Assembly (NCBI GenBank): GCA_963720565.1
Contig: CAVRFW010000013.1
Span: forward strand, 32,001-96,000
Source: Candidatus Bathyarchaeota archaeon
GTDB taxonomy: Archaea > Thermoproteota > Bathyarchaeia > Bathyarchaeales > Bathycorpusculaceae
DNA: 64,000 bases
Direction of reading: 5' to 3'
Each line of letters starts with the position of its first letter. The stretch's first letter is position 1. A program made the translations under genes and the position numbers. Under the pieces are notes generated by a model. The model was given only the letters and a program-made list of their open reading frames with translations, was not told where the DNA came from and did no database searches. Positions 1-28,735 of this stretch are shown here, in pieces.

Positions 1-1204
1 GCTTTTCCAGTCTGCATCGGGCGTTACGGGCGACGTGCTCATAGCTGCGGTTGAAAGCAGGGCGATTTCGTACAAGGAAATAGGCTACAGCTTGACAACG
101 GGACAACAGTTATGGGTGCATGATCTCGATCCTGATCACTACACCGCCGCTAGAGCCTTCGGGGAGGGCAAGTACGCCGGCATGAATCCCAACAGCAGAA
201 GCTGGTTTGGCTACGATGCTAGCACGGGTAACCGTTTATGGACCAGTGATCCAGCCGACTATCCTTGGGGAACCTACGGTCTTTCAGGCGTGATCGCGTA
301 TGGCAAGCTATACGCTCTAAGCTACGACGGAAAAGTGCACGCTTTTGACCTTGACACAGGTGATGAGATTTTCAACTACTATAGCGGCGAAGACGTATAC
401 CGTGAAACTCCCTACGGAACTTTTCCGTTCTACTACGGTCCAATAATCGCTGACAACGTGGTCTTTGCCGGTAACGGCGAACACAGTCCGACCCAACCCC
501 TGTTCAGAGGGTATCAACTACACGCTTTCGATGCTCAAACCGGAACTCCAGTGTGGACTCTGCCTGGATGGCATGTCATCCAAGCCATTGCCGATGGTTA
601 CCTCGTATCATACAACGCAGAAGACAACAACATGTACGTTTTCGGCAAAGGGCCGAGTGCAACAACTGTTTCCGCTCCAAATGTCGGAATAACATTTGGC
701 TCGTCTGCAATCATCAGCGGCACTGTCACTGATACATCGGCTGGTGCAAAACAGAATGAGCAGGCTGCTCGTTTTCCAAACGGCGTTCCCGTGGTTTCTG
801 ACGCAAGTGTGAGCGCCTGGATGGAATACGTCTACATGCAACAGGCTTGCCCAGCTGACGTTACAGGCGTTCCAGTGACGATAGACGTGATAGACTCCAA
901 CGGCAATTACCGGAACATAGGCACCGCCACAAGCGACACATACGGCGCATATAGCATCATGTGGACACCCGATATTCCGGGCAAGTACACCGTCATCGCA
1001 TCGTTCGCTGGGTCCGAATCGTACTACGGTTCTTACGCGCAAACTGCTTTCGGTGTAGAAGCACGACCTGAACCTTCGATGGGACCAACCGCACCACCTG
1101 CATCGTTGGCTGATCAGTATCTGCTTCCAGGAATCGGCGGCATCATCGCAGCAATCGCAGTAGTTGGCGTAGTACTAGCAGCGCTTCTGCTTAGAAAGAA
1201 GTGA
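1..1204 (+). CDS. Secreted PQQ-like beta-propeller repeat surface protein, paralog 1 (5' end outside window)
   Basis: Repeated beta-propeller motifs (AFDLDTGDEIF, AFDAQTGTPVW), conserved RFPNGVP..SD.SxSAWMEYVYMQQ block, C-terminal SLADQYLLP + hydrophobic helix + LRKK shared with four other genes in the window. Confidence 0.85.
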   Translation, partial: LFQSASGVTGDVLIAAVESRAISYKEIGYSLTTGQQLWVHDLDPDHYTAARAFGEGKYAGMNPNSRSWFGYDASTGNRLWTSDPADYPWGTYGLSGVIAYGKLYALSYDGKVHAFDLDTGDEIFNYYSGEDVYRETPYGTFPFYYGPIIADNVVFAGNGEHSPTQPLFRGYQLHAFDAQTGTPVWTLPGWHVIQAIADGYLVSYNAEDNNMYVFGKGPSATTVSAPNVGITFGSSAIISGTVTDTSAGAKQNEQAARFPNGVPVVSDASVSAWMEYVYMQQACPADVTGVPVTIDVIDSNGNYRNIGTATSDTYGAYSIMWTPDIPGKYTVIASFAGSESYYGSYAQTAFGVEARPEPSMGPTAPPASLADQYLLPGIGGIIAAIAVVGVVLAALLLRKK

Positions 1205-1241: not shown

Positions 1242-1284
1242 GGGACAATAAAACATCCGAACAACAAAGAACAAAGAGGAGAAA

Positions 1285-1400
1285 GATGGGCTGAGTGGGC
1301 TCTGGATTGAACTCTTGATATCGCAGTAGCGGTATAGATTTAGCATTCTCAATTCTCCTTTTTCTCTTATTTTTCGCGTTGCAGAGCCCCAGCAAACCCC
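1285..1400 (+). ncRNA. Candidate structured ncRNA, copy 1 (BHB-like arms, variable interior)
   Basis: Arms GATGGGCTGAGTGGGCTCTGG and GAGCCCCAGCAAACCCC recur at 25765-25874 and are mutually complementary; internal hairpin ATATCGC-AGTA-GCGGTAT; strand inferred from a U.G wobble and BHB geometry. Confidence 0.6.
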
Positions 1401-1412
1401 AACTGCACGACC

Positions 1413-2890: not shown

Positions 2891-3803
2891 TTGAAGTATT
2901 TCGAGTGGTTAGCAACAACCAAAACCAAGTTGGTTGCTCTGCTAGTTGTGCTGGTTATCGTTCTCGCAAGCCTTATCGGAGCATTGGCGTTCAATCAATC
3001 GGATACACCTATTTCAACTCCAACTCCAGCACCTACTTCAACTCCAACATCCTACTCCAACACCCACTCCAACACCTACTCCAACTCCAACACCCACTCC
3101 AACACCTACTTCAACTCCAACACCCACTCCAACACCTACTCCTACTCCAACACCCACTCCAACGCCTTCACCTGCTCCAACTCCAACACCTCCACCAGAC
3201 GGAAACTGGGACGGGGGTACAGAATTTCTAATTCGAGACGAGATCCACACGTTTTCCGACAATTCACCTGTCGCCGTAGAGAACTGTGGCTGGCATTTCT
3301 GGTACGACACGTCAAGGTATCCTCAGAATTGGTACTCGCCTGTCGACTTCTGGAATGGCAAGATTTACACCCGCTGGGAGATTATAACACAGCCCACCAA
3401 CACAGCCTGCAGCTTCCAGATAGTCTGGTGGAAAGCCCTTCCAGAAGTAGTCAACGGCGTGGAAGTTGTGCAGGAGCTTTGGGATTTGCCCCAGCATCTT
3501 GCGGGGGGCGCAGGGTCAGTTGGCACATTCAGCACGGTGCTGAGCAACTTTCATGTTCAAGGATTAGGTATCGATTTGCACAACACAGGCAATCTCTGGC
3601 GTCAGGGAATCGCGATTATTGATGATGCCACCGGAAGCCCGGTATCTCCCCCTTCATGGGGATATGACGATGAGCCTTGGAACAGCCGCGCACAATGGTT
3701 CCCCATGAAAATGCGTTTGACTATCGTCGCCGTGGCAGCAGGAGCCACCTTCTCCGGATGGGATAGCTGGGTATCGACGCCTCCCACAGACGGCACCAGT
3801 TGA
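2891..3803 (+). CDS. Membrane-anchored/secreted protein with Pro-Thr linker (frameshift near 3048)
   Basis: N-terminal hydrophobic helix in the 2891 frame joins the (PT)n linker and Trp-rich globular domain of the 2946 frame. Confidence 0.7.
3013..3192 (+). repeat. Coding tandem repeat (ACTCCAACACCY units) encoding (Pro-Thr)n
   Basis: Repeated actccaacacccactccaacacct units visible directly. Confidence 0.9.
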
Positions 3804-20282: not shown

Positions 20283-22903
20283 ATGCATAAAAGTAATACT
20301 GCAATAGCGATTGTCCTATTTCTGATGTTTACGCTAACACTCACAGCATTACCTCTGGCTAAAGCACACGATCCTCCGTGGCAGATTCCAACGTATGCAT
20401 ACATACAAGCTGTTCCAAACCCCGTTGGTGTCGGACAGGCAGCCCACGTTTACATGTGGATTGACAAGATTCCTAACGGTGCCTCCCCAACCAATAACAT
20501 CCGACTGCACGACTACAAGCTCACGATCACGACGCCAGATGGCACAACAACAACAAAGACCTGGGCTACCGTTGAAGATACAACGTCAAACCAAGGTTAC
20601 TCTTTTACTCCCGCCCAAACAGGTACATTACACTCTCAAGTTCGATTTTCCAGGATTGACATTCACCTACACCGATTTAGTCTTTAGTTTCTTTGGTCCC
20701 CCTGGACCAAGTGCATACATCAACGATACTTATCTCCCTAGCACCGCAACAACTACGCTAACCGTTCAGGAAGAACCACTATACACGTACCCAACCACTC
20801 CACTTCCAACAGAATACTGGACACGACCAATATACGGAGAAAACTCAAATTGGTGGGCTATCTCTTCAAACTGGCTAGGCACTGGTGCACCCGGCTATGA
20901 TAACGGCATCGGAGGCGCTGGCTTCCCAGGCGACGCAATAGGCCCCCAAACCAGTCACGTCATGTGGACCAAACCCTTCCAAAGCGGCGGAGTCGTAGGA
21001 GGAAACAACTATGAAATCCAAGGAGACACATTCTTCGAAGGCTCAGCATACGCCAACAGATTCAACAACCCAATAATCGTTGATGGAATGCTCTACTACA
21101 AGGAACCCCTCTCTTTCGGCAGCGGGTCAGGCGGACCAACCAAATGCGTTGACCTGCGGACCGGACAAGTCATCTGGTCCCGCACCGACGTACCATCGCT
21201 ATCATTCGCCTACATGTATGACGTACAAAGCTTCAACCAGCACGGAGTCTATCCGCCAATTCTGTTTGCGAGCACCGGTGGATTCTTTTTCTCGGGCCCT
21301 GTGACTTTGAGAGCCTATGACGCATACACAGGCGACCATCTATTCAACTTGACAGGCGTCCCTGACGGCCAGACGGACATGGGTCCCAAAGGGGAGTACT
21401 TGGTCATCGGACTCACAAACTTGGGCAACTTCATGGCGCCAAACTACTATTTGACACAGTGGAACATGTCAAAACTATGGGAAAGCCAATACTTCGGGGC
21501 AAGCACAACACCCTCCATCATTCCACCAATTACCGACGCAACCAACCCAAGCCTATACGACTACAACATGTCAATGCCAACGCTCAACACTATGGCTTCG
21601 CCCACCATGCTTGCAGCCTTCACCGGGGACGTCGCGCTCTTCAGGAGCGGATCCTACCCTTGCAGGTGCAAGCACCTCGTTCAGTGCGCCAAGCAGCTCT
21701 CCCTACACGTACTTCGCAGTGAACCTCAACTCATCCAAGGGCGCAATCGGGTCCATTCAGTGGTCAAACACGGTCACCCCGCCAACAGGCAACATCACTG
21801 TCTCGTTCGCAGCAGCCGACCCGGACACCGATGTGTTCGTTGAATACCAAACAGAAACCATGCAGTACGTTGGATATAGCATGACGACAGGCCAGAAAAT
21901 ATGGGGACCAATCGGCAACCAAGACGCACTAGCCTTCTACTGGATGGGCTACAGCGGTCAAGGTGCCCAAGTTGCCTACGGAAACCTCTACAGCTGCAGC
22001 AACATGGCAGGAATAGTCTACTGCTTTGACCTGAAAACCGGAACCCAATTGTGGTCATACGGCAACGGCGGAGAAGGAAACAGCACACACAGCGGCTTCG
22101 AAGTACCGGGACCATATCCAACTATCATATATGCCATCGGCAACGACGTAGTATACACAGTGACCAGCGAACACACGGTTGAAACACCGATATACAAAGG
22201 CGCACTCACAAGAGCCATCAACGCCCACACCGGAGAAGAAATCTGGACGCTTTCAAACGACAACAACGCAGGTTCCTCAGCAGCTGCCATCGCAGACGGC
22301 TACGCAACCATCGCCAACGGCTATGACAACCAAATCTACGTCATCGGAAGAGGCTCTAGCCTAACCACTGCAACCGCGGGACCGAAAGTTCAGACATTCG
22401 GAAACAACGTGATCATAGAAGGCACAATCATGGACAGCTCCTCCGGCACGAAACAGGAAGAGCAGATTGCCCGTTTTCCAAACGGAGTCCCCTGTGCATC
22501 TGATGCAAGCATGAGTGACTGGATGAGCTACATCTACCAACAACAACCGTTTCCAACAGACTTCACAGGCGTCGAAGTATCAATTGACGTTTTTGACTCT
22601 AACGGCAACTACCGAAACATAGGCACAGCAACAACCGATGCAAAAGGCATGTACAGTTTCACATGGACCCCAGATATTCCAGGCGACTTCAAGGTAATCG
22701 TGACTTTCGCAGGCACAAACGGCTATTGGCCATCAAGCTCGGAAACAGTCTTCAACGTAATGCCCGCCCCGGAAGCCACCGTCGCCCCCACAGCATCCCC
22801 TGCATCATTAGCTGACCAGTACATGCTACCAGGAATTGGCGTCATAGTCGCTGCAATCGCAGTAGTCGGCGCTGTAATAGTGCTGATGCTCAGAAAGAAG
22901 TAA
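20283..22903 (+). CDS. Secreted PQQ-like beta-propeller surface protein, paralog 2 (frameshifts near 20628 and 21660)
   Basis: Signal peptide, PNPVGVGQ, PLPTEYWTRPI, HVMWTKP, RFPNGVP, SLADQYMLP-TM-LRKK distributed over three ORFs. Confidence 0.85.
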
Positions 22904-22952
22904 ACGCTTGAGAAGACCGAAATCTTCTCTTTCCCCTTTTTTAGTCAACCAA
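22904..22952 (+). terminator. Hairpin plus pyrimidine-tract terminator
   Basis: GAGAAGA-CCGAAA-TCTTCTC then TTTCCCCTTTTTT; 49 bp identical to 25679-25727. Confidence 0.75.
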
Positions 22953-22980
22953 CAAACACAGAGGAGAAATAGGCATTTAG

Positions 22981-23085
22981 AGATTTGGTTTTTTCTGTAT
23001 TAATATTGTGTTATTACAAGAAGTTATCTTCTTCCAGTCCTACTTGGTCGCAGAAGCATTATTGCTTCTTAAAATGAAAGGAGAA
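22981..23085 (+). promoter_or_regulatory. Duplicated upstream region B
   Basis: 95/105 identical to 20171-20275; the palindrome carries two substitutions. Confidence 0.8.
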
Positions 23086-23094
23086 TAAGAAAAA

Positions 23095-25678
23095 ATGAAA
23101 TTTGCTAAAACTACATCTTTGTTTGCTTTGATTCTGATGATAACGCTAACAATCCCCATGATAATGCAAGCACCTGTAAAAGCGGATTCGACGGTGAATG
23201 TTAAAACTTATCTGTTTGTCAATGCGGCACCTAGCCCCGTGGGCGTCGGTCAAACTATATTCGTTAGCCTCTTCTTCAGCAAACCTGTACCCATTATCGG
23301 CGGATTCGGCGGCGCAACCCTGCTTGAAAATCTAAAGGTCAATATTGTCAAGCCAGACGGAACTAATGAGACACTCGGACCATATACATCTGACACGACA
23401 GGCGGTGTAGGCGGACTCACTTACACGCCAGCTACAACAGGAACCTACACCTTCCAAGGTATATTCCCTGGGCAAAATATTGGGATGGACTCTTTCACCA
23501 ACACTACCTATCATATGAATGCAGATATGAGTCCTGCCGTCACAGTTGTCGTACAGGAAGAAGCGGTAGGGGGCTATTTCTAGTCCTCCGCTTCCAACCG
23601 ATTACTGGACACGTCCATTATACGCAACAAACTACGATTGGGCGCAAAAGATTGGCGGAAACTGGTATGGCTTAGGAAGACCCGCGTTCAACCATTGCGG
23701 TGGATACGATGCCTCAAACAACAACTACAATCCATATAGCACTGCACCGAAAACTGCTCACGTTTTGTGGACCAAACCAACTACAACCGGAGGCCAACCT
23801 GGCGGCGAAACAATCGCTGATCAAAACAGCGCGTACTGTGCATCTTCTCCACTCTACCACAGCTTTGAGCCGGTGATTCTGAACGGAATAGTCTACTATA
23901 ATTATTGGGCAGCTCAAACAGACAATGCAGGCATCCTTGCAGTCGACATTCGCACAGGAGAAACACTCTGGCACAAAAACACCACTGACATATTGATTTA
24001 CGGTCAAGTTATGACGTTCCACAACAACGAGGAATTCGGCTCTCAAGCATTTCTATGGACATCACATGAGGCTGGCATAGGACCCATGGGCATGTTTGGC
24101 CCAACAATCATCTACGAATACAAAATAATCGATCCAGTAACAGGAAATGACATGGCCACCGTAACTGACATTCCCAGCGCAATCGGTGGTATGTTTTCAA
24201 CATCAATAGGCGCATCAATAGATAAAGAGCCAACCACTGGATTCTATTGCTCAGGAGGAATACTAATCCACTGGGTGGACAGCGGCAAACTCTACATGTG
24301 GAACTCAACTCTCATCCTAGCCCCTCCCTTTGCCTTCTTCGCGACACCATACAAGCCAACAGGCAGCTACAACTTCACAGCCGGCATACAATGGTCGGTA
24401 ACTCTCCCTGCAGCAAATCCAGCATATAGTATAGGACAAGCTCCTATAACCGACGAAGCAATAGTATTGACTTCATATCCCTCAATCCTTCCGACTTTCG
24501 CCACACAATACGGCGGTCCTACCGCTACAGACATAGCATACAATCCTAAAACTGGAGCACTCTTGTGGGGACCAGTAACCCAGACTTTGACGGAGCAGAA
24601 TCAAGTAGGCGTAGTAGCTGCAGGCGAGGGCGTCTATGTAAGACACGACAAAGATACAAATGAAGCGTTCGGATATTCACTGACAAATGGACAGAAACTC
24701 TGGGGACCAACCCAGCTTGTAGGCAACGCTCTAAGCCACCTATATGAATCTGCCGCAATCGCTTATGGCAGAGTTTACATTTGGGACTACGGCGGCTACT
24801 GCAACGCTATTGATCTTGAAACTGGACACCTTGACTGGACCTACACCCGCGGATCCTCTGGCTATGATAACCCATTCGGCTCATATCCTCTCTGGGTCTA
24901 CTCCTCCCAAAGCATTGCTGACGGAATGCTATTCCTCTCCGAAGGAAAGCTGTACGATCCACCTCTGTTCCCTAATGCACGAAAACTAGCCATAAACTGC
25001 ACTGACGGCTCAGTTGTCTGGTCGATAAACGGAGCATTCCAAAGAGACGTAGCACCTATCGCAGATGGCGAAATGCTTGCATGGAACGGATATGACGGCC
25101 AAATATACGCTTTCGGCACTGGAGCAACTAAGACTACTGTCACCGCACCTAACGTGGGCGTTACGACTTCCACGCCAATAACGATAACGGGTACAGTAAC
25201 GGATATCTCATCAGGCGCATCGCAAAATGCAGTTGCATCGAACTTCCCCAATGGCTTACCATGCGTTTCTGACGCAAGTATGACTCCATTTATGGAAGCC
25301 GTTTACGAGCAGCAAACAATGCCAACCAGCCTGACCGGAGTAACAGTAACAGTATCTGTCACCGACATAAACGGCAACAGTTACGACATAGGCACAACAA
25401 CAACTGACCCAACCACAGGTTTCTACAGCATAAACTGGACACCCACCATACCCGGCAACTTCCTTGTCACTGCAACTTTCGCAAACACTCAATCATACTA
25501 CGGATCCTCCGCTAAGACAGCCTTCTACGCAAGCGAAGCCCCTGCTGCCACTCCCGAACCGACTCAGGCACCTGCATCACTAGCTGACCAGTACTTGCTT
25601 CCTGCAACGGGCGGAATAATCGCGGCAATCGCAATAGTCGGCATAGCGATAATTGCGCTGATGCTCAGAAAAAAGTAG
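23095..25678 (+). CDS. Secreted PQQ-like beta-propeller surface protein, paralog 3 (frameshift near 23577)
   Basis: Removing one T restores GYSSPPLPTDYWTRP and joins the 23095 and 23765 ORFs; same family motifs and C-terminal anchor. Confidence 0.88.
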
Positions 25679-25727
25679 ACGCTTGAGAAGACCGAAATCT
25701 TCTCTTTCCCCTTTTTTAGTCAACCAA
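25679..25727 (+). terminator. Hairpin plus pyrimidine-tract terminator
   Basis: Identical to 22904-22952. Confidence 0.75.
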
Positions 25728-25764
25728 TAACGAGTACAAAGGAGAAGGATGGAGAGTTTAGAAG

Positions 25765-25874
25765 GATGGGGCTGAGTGGGCTCTGGAACAAGTCATGACT
25801 GTCTAGTCAGCAGTCAAGAGTTGAATTTCTTTCCTTTCTCCTTACAGTATAATTCCGGAGCCCCAGCAAACCCC
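25765..25874 (+). ncRNA. Candidate structured ncRNA, copy 2 (BHB-like arms, variable interior)
   Basis: GGG-GCTG-AGT-GGGCTCTGGAA ... TTCCGGAGCCC-CAGC-AAA-CCC; 11-bp inner stem with one U.G pair; internal hairpin TGACTG-TCTAGTCAG-CAGTCA. Confidence 0.65.
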
Positions 25875-26159
25875 TATTTATCTTTACTCAGGAGGCGCTT
25901 GGGGTCCAAAATCTTCAAAGAAGCAAGTCAGTCTTGGATCTTTCATGGTTAATTAAGAATTCTGCATGGAAATACCCAGATAATTATTTCAACCTCAGTC
26001 TGAGTGCGTGTAACGCATAAGTTGGTTATTCTCAAATCTTACTGGCTGCTTCGTTTAGTTTTTTCCGTGTTTTTGCCTGTGCTAAATAGTATTAAATACA
26101 AGTTGGTCTGAAAGGAGCATTGGCCTTGAAAAGGGCTTATAATGAAAGGAGAATAGAAA

Positions 26160-28691
26160 TTGACTAGAAATAGAATTGCTGCAGCGATTGTTATGTTTCT
26201 GATGTTAAGCATGATCATTGCGACAGTTGCTTTTCCGGCTGTTCGAGCACAGATTCTTCCCTCGTTCCTGCTAATCAACGTTGCACCTAACCCCATCGGC
26301 GTCGGACAAACCGCGCAGGTGAACGCTTTTCTAAGTAAACCGCCAATGACAGCGGGTCTGGGTGGTTCCGGCGACATGTTCAAAGGCATCACGGTGGAAG
26401 TCACGAGGCCTGACGGAACAAAGCAAACTCTGGGACCATTCACATCTGACGCAACAGGAGGAACCTACACCGCTTTCACGCCTAGTACAGTTGGCAACTA
26501 CACATTCAAAGCGTCTTACCCAGGGCAACGTATAGAGGCATGGTCGTACTCGCCGTTTGGTCCCCCGACTTTTATCAATGTTACATATACGGCCAGTACT
26601 AGCCCAACAGTAACCCTTGTCGTACAGGAAGAAGCTATACCGACATATTCCAGTCCTCCCCTTCCGACGGAATACTGGTCTCGCCCAATATACGCAACAA
26701 ACTACGGGTGGGCTCAACTTGGCGGAAGCTGGTTTGGACTTGCACCGGCAGTATTCGCCACCACTGGAGGGTATGATGCAACTGGAAACTTCAATCCATA
26801 CACCACCGCACCAAACACTGCTCACGTAATGTGGACAAAACCCACGCATTTCGGAGGACAAGCAGGATCACCTATAAGCGCCGACCAAATGAGCCAATAC
26901 ATGTCCACAACGATAGCCACGAACTTCTTCGAACCCGTAATCCTTAACGGAATACTCTACTACACTCATTTTGCGGGTCCAAACGCCGCCAAAGCAAGCT
27001 GGGAAGCTGTAGACATACGCACAGGAGAAGTCCTGTGGAGCAGATCAGCGGGCGAAACAGGCAATGAAGTCATTCGCATGGGCCAAATCCTGCGTTGGCA
27101 TTCGATTCAAGAATATGGTTCTTGGGCTTTCCTATATAGCTGCGAATCGGGAGGATTCTTCCAAGCAATATCCTTCTTCTCAATATATGATGCATTCACA
27201 GGAGAATTCGTAGCAAACATAACTGGAGTTCAGAATCCATCATTTCTGATGGATCTTGAATCAGAACAGCAGGGAACATTACTAGGCTACTACGTCGCTT
27301 CAGATGGCAACTTGACTCTTTGGAACTCGACCCGACTAATGATGAGCAATAGTTGGGATCAGATAACTATCCGTCCAGCCGGCACATACAATTGGTCGAC
27401 AGGAATAGAGTGGTCAGTGCCGATGCCAACAACGGTTGGAAACGCACCCATAGGCGGATCGATGGGCATTGCCGCAATAACTCCCGAAGTGATATTGCTC
27501 CGTTATGCTCCTTCACCCGGCATGTTTGTCGAACTCAGTTACGGCTATCAGATCACCGCAGGTATCGATGCAAAAACTGGAAGGTTGCTCTGGGGACCAA
27601 CAAACCAAACAATACCTAACCTTCAAGACGTGGCTATAATAGCAGCAGACGAAGGTGTCTACGTATTGCACAACAAAGACACGAATGAAGCATACGGTTA
27701 CTCACTAGAAACAGGGAACCTAATGTGGGGACCAGTTAAACTTCCAGGAAACGCTTGGGCCGTTATGTCACGGTCCGCGGAAATCGCCTACGGCAAAATA
27801 TTCATCTGGGACTTCGGCGGCTACGTGAATGCTTTGAACGCAGATACAGGAAGTATCGAGTGGACTTTAGTCCCGAGAAGTGCTGGCTACAACACTGGCT
27901 ATGGCATCTATCCCCTTTGGTACACTGGAAGCATATGCGACGGAAAGCTATTCCTCTCAGAGAGCCACATGTACAATCCGCCGCTGTTCCCAGACGCTCA
28001 AAGACTCGTTATCGACTGCGAAACAGGAGAGCTTGTCTGGAGCGTACTAAGCTTCGACGGGCGAGTGCCTGCCGCTCATGCAGACGGCTACATGGTAGAG
28101 TGGAACAGCTACGATAACCAAATATACTCATTCGGCAAGGGTCAAACCGCCACCACAATCGCAGCTTCGCCAAAGGTTTCAGTGCAAGGCAACAAAGTAT
28201 TGGTTGAAGGAACTGTTACTGACGAATCACCTGGAACGAAAGATTCCGATAGGACAGCTCGTTTTCCAAACGGCGTCCCAGCAGTCTCTGACACAAGCAT
28301 GAGTGCATGGATGGAATACGTTTACATGCAACAGCCCAAGCCTACGGACACAACTGGCGTTGAAGTAGTCATAACCGTTCTTGATCCTAACGGCAACTGT
28401 TACGAGGTAGGCAGAACAGCAAGCGACATGGACGGCTTTTTCAAGCTGACGTTTGAACCAGAAGTCCCAGGCGAATACACCGTATATGCCTCGTTTGAAG
28501 GCTCAGAGTCATACTGGCCCTCATCTGCGCTCACCGCTATAAGTGTGGCAGAAGCAACTGAAGCTACTCCTGAACCAACACAAGCGCCTGCAACTATGGC
28601 TGAACAGTACTTGCTGCCCGGAGTAGTCGGCCTGTTCGCTGCAATCGCAATCGTCGGCGTCGTATTAGCACTGCTACTCAGAAAACGCTAA
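26160..28691 (+). CDS. Secreted PQQ-like beta-propeller surface protein, paralog 4 (intact, 843 aa)
   Basis: TTG start after AAGGAGAA, signal peptide, propeller repeats, MAEQYLLP-TM-LRKR. Confidence 0.92.
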   Translation: MTRNRIAAAIVMFLMLSMIIATVAFPAVRAQILPSFLLINVAPNPIGVGQTAQVNAFLSKPPMTAGLGGSGDMFKGITVEVTRPDGTKQTLGPFTSDATGGTYTAFTPSTVGNYTFKASYPGQRIEAWSYSPFGPPTFINVTYTASTSPTVTLVVQEEAIPTYSSPPLPTEYWSRPIYATNYGWAQLGGSWFGLAPAVFATTGGYDATGNFNPYTTAPNTAHVMWTKPTHFGGQAGSPISADQMSQYMSTTIATNFFEPVILNGILYYTHFAGPNAAKASWEAVDIRTGEVLWSRSAGETGNEVIRMGQILRWHSIQEYGSWAFLYSCESGGFFQAISFFSIYDAFTGEFVANITGVQNPSFLMDLESEQQGTLLGYYVASDGNLTLWNSTRLMMSNSWDQITIRPAGTYNWSTGIEWSVPMPTTVGNAPIGGSMGIAAITPEVILLRYAPSPGMFVELSYGYQITAGIDAKTGRLLWGPTNQTIPNLQDVAIIAADEGVYVLHNKDTNEAYGYSLETGNLMWGPVKLPGNAWAVMSRSAEIAYGKIFIWDFGGYVNALNADTGSIEWTLVPRSAGYNTGYGIYPLWYTGSICDGKLFLSESHMYNPPLFPDAQRLVIDCETGELVWSVLSFDGRVPAAHADGYMVEWNSYDNQIYSFGKGQTATTIAASPKVSVQGNKVLVEGTVTDESPGTKDSDRTARFPNGVPAVSDTSMSAWMEYVYMQQPKPTDTTGVEVVITVLDPNGNCYEVGRTASDMDGFFKLTFEPEVPGEYTVYASFEGSESYWPSSALTAISVAEATEATPEPTQAPATMAEQYLLPGVVGLFAAIAIVGVVLALLLRKR

Positions 28692-28735
28692 ACATCTTGA
28701 AAGCACAAGCTTTCAACTTCCCCTTTTTTAGTCAA
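28692..28735 (+). terminator. Hairpin plus T-tract terminator
   Basis: TTGAAAGC-ACAA-GCTTTCAA then CTTCCCTTTTTTAGTCAA. Confidence 0.7.

Follow-up and report, generated by a model that had tools for sequence, protein, structure and literature searches.

A non-coding element belonging to what is very probably a genuine structured RNA family occurs twice in a 64,000-nt stretch of a Candidatus Bathyarchaeota archaeon genome (assembly GCA_963720565.1, contig CAVRFW010000013.1; C13:32001-96000 of the genome called G000 here, 2.09 Mb in 13 contigs), which is referred to below as the window. In both places the element lies behind a gene of a large paralogous family of secreted propeller proteins. Comparison of homologous sequences strongly supports the view that the two conserved arms form an archaeal bulge-helix-bulge (BHB, in the arrangement hBHBh') on the + strand, and the interior enclosed by them is, judged by alignment, antisense to the Shine-Dalgarno (SD) region, start codon, and first codons of the paralogs. 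The best explanation, to which an even chance may be given, is that the splicing endonuclease EndA would excise the element as a probably circular RNA, which would act in trans as an antisense RNA and block translation of the paralogs.

The arms, GATGGG(G)CTGAGTGGGCTCTGG and GAGCCCCAGCAAACCCC, are found exactly at 1285-1305/1384-1400 (copy 1) and 25765-25786/25858-25874 (copy 2). An earlier, sequence-only reading of the window had placed them about 80-90 bp past the stops of the upstream genes, which holds exactly: the stops lie at 1204 and 25678, and the arms begin 81 and 87 nt later. The 16-mer of the 5' arm has two exact matches in the window and one further match with three mismatches (three matches in 0/100 shuffles), and the 17-mer of the 3' arm has two matches, a number reached by 1/100 shuffles. 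On the + strand, the arms pair as GG(G)/CC(C) and then as GCUG/CAGC, with the bulges AGU and AAA each 3' of the GCUG/CAGC helix, followed by an inner stem (P1) of 8 bp in copy 1 and 11 bp in copy 2. A strict two-arm pattern detected 25 copies in 7/61 related genomes, with 0 for the reversed-pattern control, and RNAalifold recovered the identical helix-bulge-helix from 8 copies as well as from all 25. Single-sequence folding favoured a slightly shifted register near the bulges and yielded a significant fold for copy 2 alone (z -3.1, compared with -0.5 for copy 1). The + strand BHB with 3-nt bulges and a 4-bp helix that had been proposed from the window was reproduced in its pairing and is strongly backed by comparison among homologs.

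Copy 1 corresponds to a full covariance-model match at 1283..1403 on the + strand (G000:C13:33283-33403, 94 bits, E 4e-20). Just before the BHB stands a purine-rich leader, AGAGGAGAAAGAU, resembling an SD/start region (1275..1287), followed by the outer helix GG (1288-1289), the central helix GCUG (1290-1293), and the bulge AGU (1294-1296). The 5' strand of P1 (1297..1304) pairs with 1382-1389 and encloses an apical hairpin, AUAUCGC-AGUA-GCGGUAU, with one U-G pair (1318..1335), which is antisense to palindromic paralog codons ~6-11, and a stretch predicted to be unpaired (1337..1374), composed of the anti-start GAUUUAGCAU, which contains CAU, and the anti-SD CU tract UUCUCCUUUUUCUC. The 3' strand of P1 (1382-1389) leads into CAGC (1390-1393), the bulge AAA (1394-1396), and the outer helix CC (1397-1398), all on the + strand. 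Copy 2, also on the + strand (full match 25764..25877; G000:C13:57764-57877, 86.7 bits, E 3e-18), has the same plan: a purine-rich, start-region-like leader (25738..25767), the outer helix GGG (25768-25770), GCUG (25771-25774), the bulge AGU (25775-25777), the 5' strand of P1 (25778..25788, 11 bp with 25853-25863, including one U-G pair), an apical hairpin UGACUG..CAGUCA (25796..25816) whose loop UCUAGUCA is by eye antisense to the UUGACUAGA start of several paralogs, the anti-start-region tract UUCUUUCCUUUCUCCUUACAGUAUAA (25818..25852, predicted unpaired), the 3' strand of P1 (25853-25863), CAGC (25864-25867), the bulge AAA (25868-25870), and the outer helix CCC (25871-25873). By the canonical-motif rule, BHB cleavage falls after the second bulge base, so that cuts are predicted at 1295/1296 and 1395/1396 in copy 1 and at 25776/25777 and 25869/25870 in copy 2, all on the + strand, and the predicted excised pieces are 1296-1395 (100 nt) and 25777-25869 (93 nt). 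By inspection, most of the 25 copies have a purine tract of the GGAGA type 8-30 nt before the 5' arm.

The interiors had been described as unrelated, a view that comparison overturns: a stacked helix, a hairpin, a GAUUUGCAU-like motif, and a CU-rich tract are common to all. From P1 the order runs through a second helix, the apical hairpin, and ~30 unpaired CU-rich bases back to P1. Among 36 representatives (mostly one per genome, 14 of them training rows), which were aligned to a model containing the motif and are therefore biased towards the model structure, 96.5% of cells are paired, and changes on both sides occur in 11/16 pairs (42 cells). The observed pairing and covariation measures were reached by 0/500 shuffles, and sliding the partner by 1-3 columns lowered pairing to 26-57%. 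The 3-4-3 geometry, whose loss in homologs would have spoken against the proposed motif, is kept in 35/36 representatives, with covariation in both flanking helices, and all four central pairs are present in 33/36. Bulge 1 reads AGA, AAA, AGU, AAU, AUA, or UAU, and bulge 2 is AAA in 36/36; the inner helix h' measures 8-13 bp, with 9 of its 10 pairs covarying. The outer helix has 0-1 bp in 3, 2-3 bp in 23, and 4-7 bp in 10 of the representatives. A perfect 8-bp outer helix was found in the single-contig genome G052 of family f7, in two of the five copies examined (AAAAUGGG/CCCAUUUU or GAAAUGGG/CCCAUUUC), and a third copy there has the same 8-bp outer helix together with CAGU in the central helix (G-U). 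With regard to strand, the bulges lie 3' of the central helix on the + strand alone, the minus strand placing them 5'. The earlier argument that G-U pairs favour the + strand also gains from the larger alignment, in which G-U appears at 5 of the 10 inner-stem pairs among the 25 copies (2-5 sequences each).

What had been taken for a two-copy element is represented in G000 by seven intact copies plus two decayed ones, one with a decayed 5' arm (C12:107396-107511, minus strand) and one without the 3' arm (C5:347863-347973); three further pieces consist of the 3' arm only. A covariance model (R1) was built on the 25 pattern-found copies, and matches were counted at E up to 0.001. Such matches were present in 38/151 genomes and 13/70 genera of the same taxonomic family, with 1-19 per genome. 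In a class-wide sample, 12/151 genomes had matches, distributed over family f1 (7/15), f7 (3/5), and f24 (1/27); those of f7 are the 3/3 genomes of genus g48, with 5-16 copies. The search of related genomes with a covariance model, suggested earlier as a check, has in this way returned a large family whose homologs keep the 3-4-3 arrangement. The family has no Rfam counterpart, since Rfam 15 gave no match either for the window at the gathering threshold or for five loci at E up to 10. ARAGORN predicted 0 tRNA genes in the window, and according to the ARAGORN and Rfam scans of the window the element resides in no tRNA or rRNA gene, which sets it apart from tRNA and rRNA introns.

The interior being antisense to the paralog start region gives the excised RNA a likely job. 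The paralogs have a common leader, ..UAUAAUGAAAGGAGAAUAGAAA-AUG/UUG, and the 11-mer TGAAAGGAGAA occurs 10 times in the 2.09 Mb of G000, seven times at paralog starts, twice as the complement of elements, and once elsewhere. When reverse-complemented, the interiors can be aligned to the start regions of paralogs over about -30 to +10..+30, a span that takes in the SD, ATG, and first codons, as illustrated by C12p against C9a (20 contiguous bases) and C3m against C1 (31/36 aligned columns identical). The reverse complement of copy 1 aligns across the SD and ATG to the start regions of C3b and C9b, and the tract of copy 2 is 20/22 identical to the C9a start region at positions -23 to -1. Complementarity was assessed by local alignment of 8 elements with 15 paralog start regions, using 600 other SD-bearing G000 start regions as controls. 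The 99th percentile of the controls was exceeded by 12/15 paralog start regions for C3m and likewise for C12p, 10/15 for C5m, 9/15 for each of the window copies (W1 and W2), 6/15 for C9p and for C12m, and 4/15 for C13a; the reverse complement scored 14-47 compared with 12-26 for sense-strand controls. Two predicted targets lie in the window itself on the + strand, namely the start regions of the paralog at 23095 (AAAAUGAAAGGAGAAUAAGAAAAAAUG, 23070..23097) and of the paralog at 26160 (UAUAAUGAAAGGAGAAUAGAAAUUG, 26138..26162), and the model interior weakly matches the opposite strand of the first of these, at 23066-23137 (C13:55066-55137 minus, E 0.54).

The antisense tract follows the start regions of each lineage. 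Elements of G006 are the complement of their own UUGGAGA-type leaders and those of G033 the complement of UAGGAGAUGAAA (by eye), while in G052 they are the complement of the own-lineage GAAGGUGAAAAAAUG/GAAGGUGAAAAAAUGAAAAAAC, with 21/21 in one pair and 27/29 in another. Folding of the predicted circles of both window copies gave the CU tract an unpaired probability of ~0.9. In addition, the apical hairpin is antisense to the palindromic codons ~6-11, which are also hairpin-capable in the mRNA, and the possibility of hairpins in both RNAs suggests a loop-loop contact between them. The elements are not best matched to their own gene: scores against the own upstream gene and against the best start region were 27/43 for C3m, 23/34 for C5m, and 24/34 for W2, and W1 scored 12 against its own upstream gene, the lowest of 15. 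These four pairs hint at action on other paralogs. On such grounds the excised RNA would pair with the SD/start-codon region of paralog mRNAs and block their translation, acting in trans on other paralogs; for antisense control of the paralogs as such, the chance appears even or slightly better.

The connection with the paralogs is also evident from genomic position. A same-strand paralog-type open reading frame (ORF), with a C-terminus made of a hydrophobic stretch and an RKK/RKRP tail, ends 58-94 nt upstream in 16/25 copies; among 29 further representatives, a paralog end was found 54-86 nt upstream in 13, and several more show only the hairpin and T-run of the gene. Genes downstream of the elements vary and are often convergent; therefore, the element is not the leader of the next gene. 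The paralog family counts ~16 members in G000 and 9-22 in relatives; its proteins combine a signal peptide with Ig-like parts and a PQQ_2 propeller. Of the 29 f1 genomes for which the model search and the paralog search both list explicit rows, elements and paralogs are found together in 8 and are both missing from 19, the exceptions being G017 (elements without paralogs) and G009 (a single paralog match without an element). In f7, elements (12-16) and paralog matches (15-18) coincide in genus g48 and are both absent from G042, and by coordinates 10/12 elements of G052 stand just behind paralogs.

The enzymes that the proposed excision would call for are encoded in G000: PF01974 (EndA catalytic domain) has two matches, at 99 and 77 bits, the two EndA-type genes being located at C9:270 kb and C5:259 kb and their products measuring 184 and 187 aa, and RtcB was identified by PF01139 at 493 bits. 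Because there are two EndA-domain genes, we infer a two-subunit alpha2-beta2 enzyme with relaxed specificity, in which, judging from the catalytic residues, one protein is presumably catalytic and the other structural. EndA would cleave the element at both bulges and release an RNA of ~95-100 nt, a step regarded as likely; RtcB would then likely close this RNA, with a back-joint of CCCCAGCAA to (U/A)GGGCUC, and the chance that the excised element becomes a circle is put a little above even. The transcript would arise by read-through of the hairpin/T-run of the upstream paralog, or from an unseen promoter. Several tRNAs of G000 have predicted introns. One of them, tRNA-Arg(CCT) at C3:167680-167834, has a predicted 78-nt intron that ends in GAGCACCAGAGAGCACCAGC and resembles the 3' arm of the element, with ARAGORN intron borders that may be imprecise.

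Some candidate interpretations of the element were considered and rejected. The sequence CCCCTTTTTTAG, considered as the element's own promoter, does not belong to the element, as the same hairpin and T-run stand behind element-free paralogs, and its distance to the 5' arm varies from ~20 to 52 nt among the 25 copies. Splicing that restores a reading frame, as in cbf5, was discarded since no frame is conserved across the joint in these copies; codons resembling starts at the 5' arm are spread over two frames, and the predicted introns measure 85-103 nt, lengths that respect no frame. Inspection against the consensus motifs likewise revealed no fit to an integron attC site, a kink-turn (K-turn), a C/D box RNA, or an H/ACA RNA.

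Several observations weigh against an excised antisense RNA, besides the alignment bias mentioned above. The outer helix has just 2-3 bp in the window copies and 0-1 bp in 3/36 representatives. GCUG/CAGC and AAAC are nearly invariant in sequence across the 36 representatives, which a purely structural motif would not need and which could mean a reader other than EndA. No promoter was identified for the element, and a hairpin with a T-run stands between the upstream gene and the element, so that read-through would have to be assumed; a sigma-70/terminator scan was uninformative, leaving the hairpin and T-run at 25679..25716 uncalled. RNA contigs of the metatranscriptome runs X19 and X20 cover parts of paralog genes and none of copy 1, copy 2, or C13a, blanks that say nothing for or against expression of the element. 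On the antisense side, C13a exceeds the controls at few paralog starts, plain BLAST ranks start regions among the top matches for just 4/7 elements, and whole-element duplex energies fail, except for one pair, to beat the best of 300 random windows; these energies do not discriminate because the GC-rich arms dominate them. Selection for pairing may not be the whole source of the antisense likeness, to which descent from an inverted 5' fragment or gene conversion could have contributed. Finally, the related genomes in which elements and paralogs coincide are not independent. In X3, one DNA contig of 85% likeness skips 70 nt inside copy 1, which is read as the shorter interior of a relative.

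The alternative that survives best, albeit at a low probability, is that the element acts in cis, as an excisable segment of a read-through or intergenic transcript in which the tract pairs with the purine leader or with the downstream start region. EndA excision would then be a regulatory step or a mere processing cut and the excised piece a by-product, comparable to the 5' untranslated region (UTR) intron of HVO_1309 in Haloferax. A purine tract resembling a start region is indeed present just upstream of most copies, copy 2 lies ~290 nt upstream of the paralog at 26160 and matches its start region, C13a matches its downstream paralog best, if weakly (26), and BHB excision from a 5' UTR has been documented (PMC7714728). 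However, several copies precede a convergent or unrelated gene with no paralog, the elements match the start region of their own upstream gene poorly, and a pairing of leader and tract would intersect the inner stem, competing with the BHB.

It is also conceivable, though unlikely, that the same structured RNA is read at its arms by a factor other than EndA, such as a sequence-specific RNA-binding protein or nuclease, with no excision and no circle. This would account for the near invariance of GCUG/CAGC and AAAC, which EndA recognition is not known to need, and for the weak outer helix of many copies. Nevertheless, the exact EndA motif is what results from the strict 3-4-3 arrangement, from bulges that sit on opposite strands and 3' of the central helix, and from the covariation of the flanking helices, and inspection revealed no K-turn or C/D signature.

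Very improbable is an element acting at the DNA level, i.e., a miniature mobile element or an invertible or recombination cassette, whose imperfect inverted repeat would be GGGCTCTGG/CCGGAGCCC. The arms are an inverted repeat, the element is multi-copy, near-identical copies exist in G003, some of them at contig ends, and half elements and tandem pairs occur. On the other hand, G-U pairs are confined to one strand and changes are compensatory; no flanking direct repeats, which the target-site duplication of a miniature inverted-repeat element (MITE) would leave, were seen in the 25 copies (by inspection alone), position and orientation relative to the upstream paralog are constant in 16/16 linked copies, and the interior is inverted in 0/25. 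A transposase beside the half copies with only a 3' arm was considered and rejected, the adjoining genes encoding KaiC-like ATPases instead. Element interiors diverge while the arms stay conserved. Hardly credible is the idea of a non-functional relic, in which gene duplication would have carried along a 5' piece of a paralog in inverted form: the interior is homologous in antisense to paralog 5' ends and decayed copies exist, but the arms, without counterpart in the paralogs, are conserved better than any other part in both taxonomic families, the structure covaries, and the antisense tract follows lineage-specific start regions.

Trans- and cis-encoded antisense RNAs are known to occlude SD sequences and start codons, and bacteria have small RNAs (sRNAs) derived from 3' UTRs. 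The element resembles these in its pyrimidine tract, predicted to be single-stranded and complementary to the SD and AUG, in a hairpin that is complementary to one of the target, and in its place behind a coding gene; it differs in its predicted BHB boundaries, whereas those RNAs are linear and made by termination or RNase cuts. To our knowledge, no SD-occluding antisense RNA is bounded by a splicing-endonuclease motif, the archaeal splicing endonuclease has isolated substrates only among transcripts other than tRNA and rRNA, namely the cbf5 mRNA and the leader of HVO_1309, and functional excised introns are known solely as tRNA-hosted guide RNAs. A literature search, with subscription journals outside its coverage, found no description of a BHB-flanked antisense RNA family.

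Among the known systems, the nearest in placement is HVO_1309 of Haloferax volcanii, where EndA removes a 46-nt BHB intron from the 5' UTR, an intron that was also seen as a circle (Schwarz et al. 2020, PMC7714728). The intron and the element share a BHB that lies in neither tRNA nor rRNA and in a transcript portion that is non-coding; however, the HVO_1309 intron is a single one in the leader of one gene and is not known to have an antisense target, a multi-copy family, or a paralog linkage, and for the element excision is predicted. The cbf5 pre-mRNA intron of Crenarchaeota (Watanabe 2002; Yokobori 2009, as cited in PMC7714728) is likewise BHB-bounded in a transcript that is neither tRNA nor rRNA, in an archaeon of the TACK type (Thaumarchaeota, Aigarchaeota, Crenarchaeota, and Korarchaeota) with a two-subunit endonuclease. 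It reportedly interrupts a reading frame, whereas no open frame runs over the predicted joint in the 25 copies. The tRNA-Trp intron, according to PMC12558985, is a box C/D guide RNA that is functional as an excised circle and base-pairs in trans, and for the element, too, the excised piece itself is predicted to be a functional RNA pairing in trans. That intron is hosted by a tRNA and guides rRNA/tRNA methylation by its C/D boxes, while the element has no host tRNA, no C/D boxes on inspection, and complementarity to mRNA starts. The permuted signal recognition particle (SRP) RNA of Thermoproteus reportedly matures by BHB cleavage and circularisation (PMC4731332) and is similar as a stand-alone non-coding RNA whose maturation depends on BHB and ligation, which is predicted for the element. 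Unlike the element, it is a universal single-copy housekeeping RNA and is not known as an antisense regulator.

Further forms of the element were observed. Tandem elements 10-40 nt apart exist at G130:C15:7270-7537, G097:C8:5026-5281, G020:C3:48598-48818, G153:C37:12605-12862, and G296:C1:4352-4630; such a pair would make one transcript give two excised RNAs. Half elements of G000 are located at C5:347135-347183, C5:347863-347973, C6:9301-9316, and C3:36815-36830, and those with the 3' arm and CU tract sit downstream of genes for KaiC-like ATPases. One piece on C5 consists of the 5' arm, the hairpin, and the CU tract and lacks the 3' arm; it lies 700 nt downstream of a 3'-arm piece, in a permuted-looking order. 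Behind another paralog of the window (22903-22990), UAGAGAUUUGG comes after a hairpin/T-run and a purine leader, has no arms, and may be a decayed element. Directly past the 3' arm of copy 1, a short ORF (1416-1577) encodes the C-terminal end of an FG-GAP-like protein, and a full FG-GAP-like gene follows the decayed copy at G000 C12:107396-107511; at 1416-1577 a deletion reaching to the arm seems to have removed most of the gene. On contig C7 of G000, the CAGCAAACCC repeats are complementary to sequence that encodes C-terminal anchors in a different gene family and are unrelated to the element; equally unrelated to it are about ten GTAAACCAGCAAACCCAAG copies on the minus strand at ~36-95 kb, which lie opposite the sequence for the C-terminal anchors (..GLGLLVYLKKR) in a second paralogous family.

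Regarding the paralogs themselves, the C-termini in the window (1120-1204, 25590-25678, and 28600-28691) consist of LLP(A/G)(T/I/V)GG, a hydrophobic stretch, and RKK/RKR, which resembles an LPxTG-type sorting signal. The gene upstream of copy 2 appears to be split into a 162-aa N-terminal ORF (23095-23583) and a 637-aa rest (23765-25678), with stops inside the genome-search match, and may represent a frameshift, a pseudogene, or an assembly error. Past its stop is the hairpin with T-run, GAGAAGA..UCUUCUC UUUCCCCUUUUUU (25679..25716, + strand). This module belongs to the gene and not to the element, because element-free paralogs keep it (hairpin and CCCCUUUUUU, window 22903-22945 and 28692-28732). 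Elsewhere in the window, an ORF at 2946-3803 encodes a globular part preceded by a long Thr-Pro repeat (PTPTPT...), and overlapping frames are open there because of the repeat.

A wider reading may be offered, although it is unlikely: the paralogs and elements could form a cross-silencing network, in which each expressed paralog would release from its tail an EndA-excised circular antisense RNA that stops translation of the others and spares its own gene. If this were true, the cell could choose one or a few of ~15-20 surface proteins for display, perhaps in a mutually exclusive way, and it would mean a new use of the tRNA-splicing machinery in making regulatory circular RNAs. The family itself comprises hundreds of copies (over 250 matches) in at least two taxonomic families of uncultured archaea and places a textbook splicing motif around an antisense cassette. 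If processing is confirmed, EndA and RtcB would be seen to make regulatory, probably circular, RNAs, the element would offer a natural compact scaffold for circular antisense RNA, and a first handle would be gained on the control of this large family of secreted propeller proteins.

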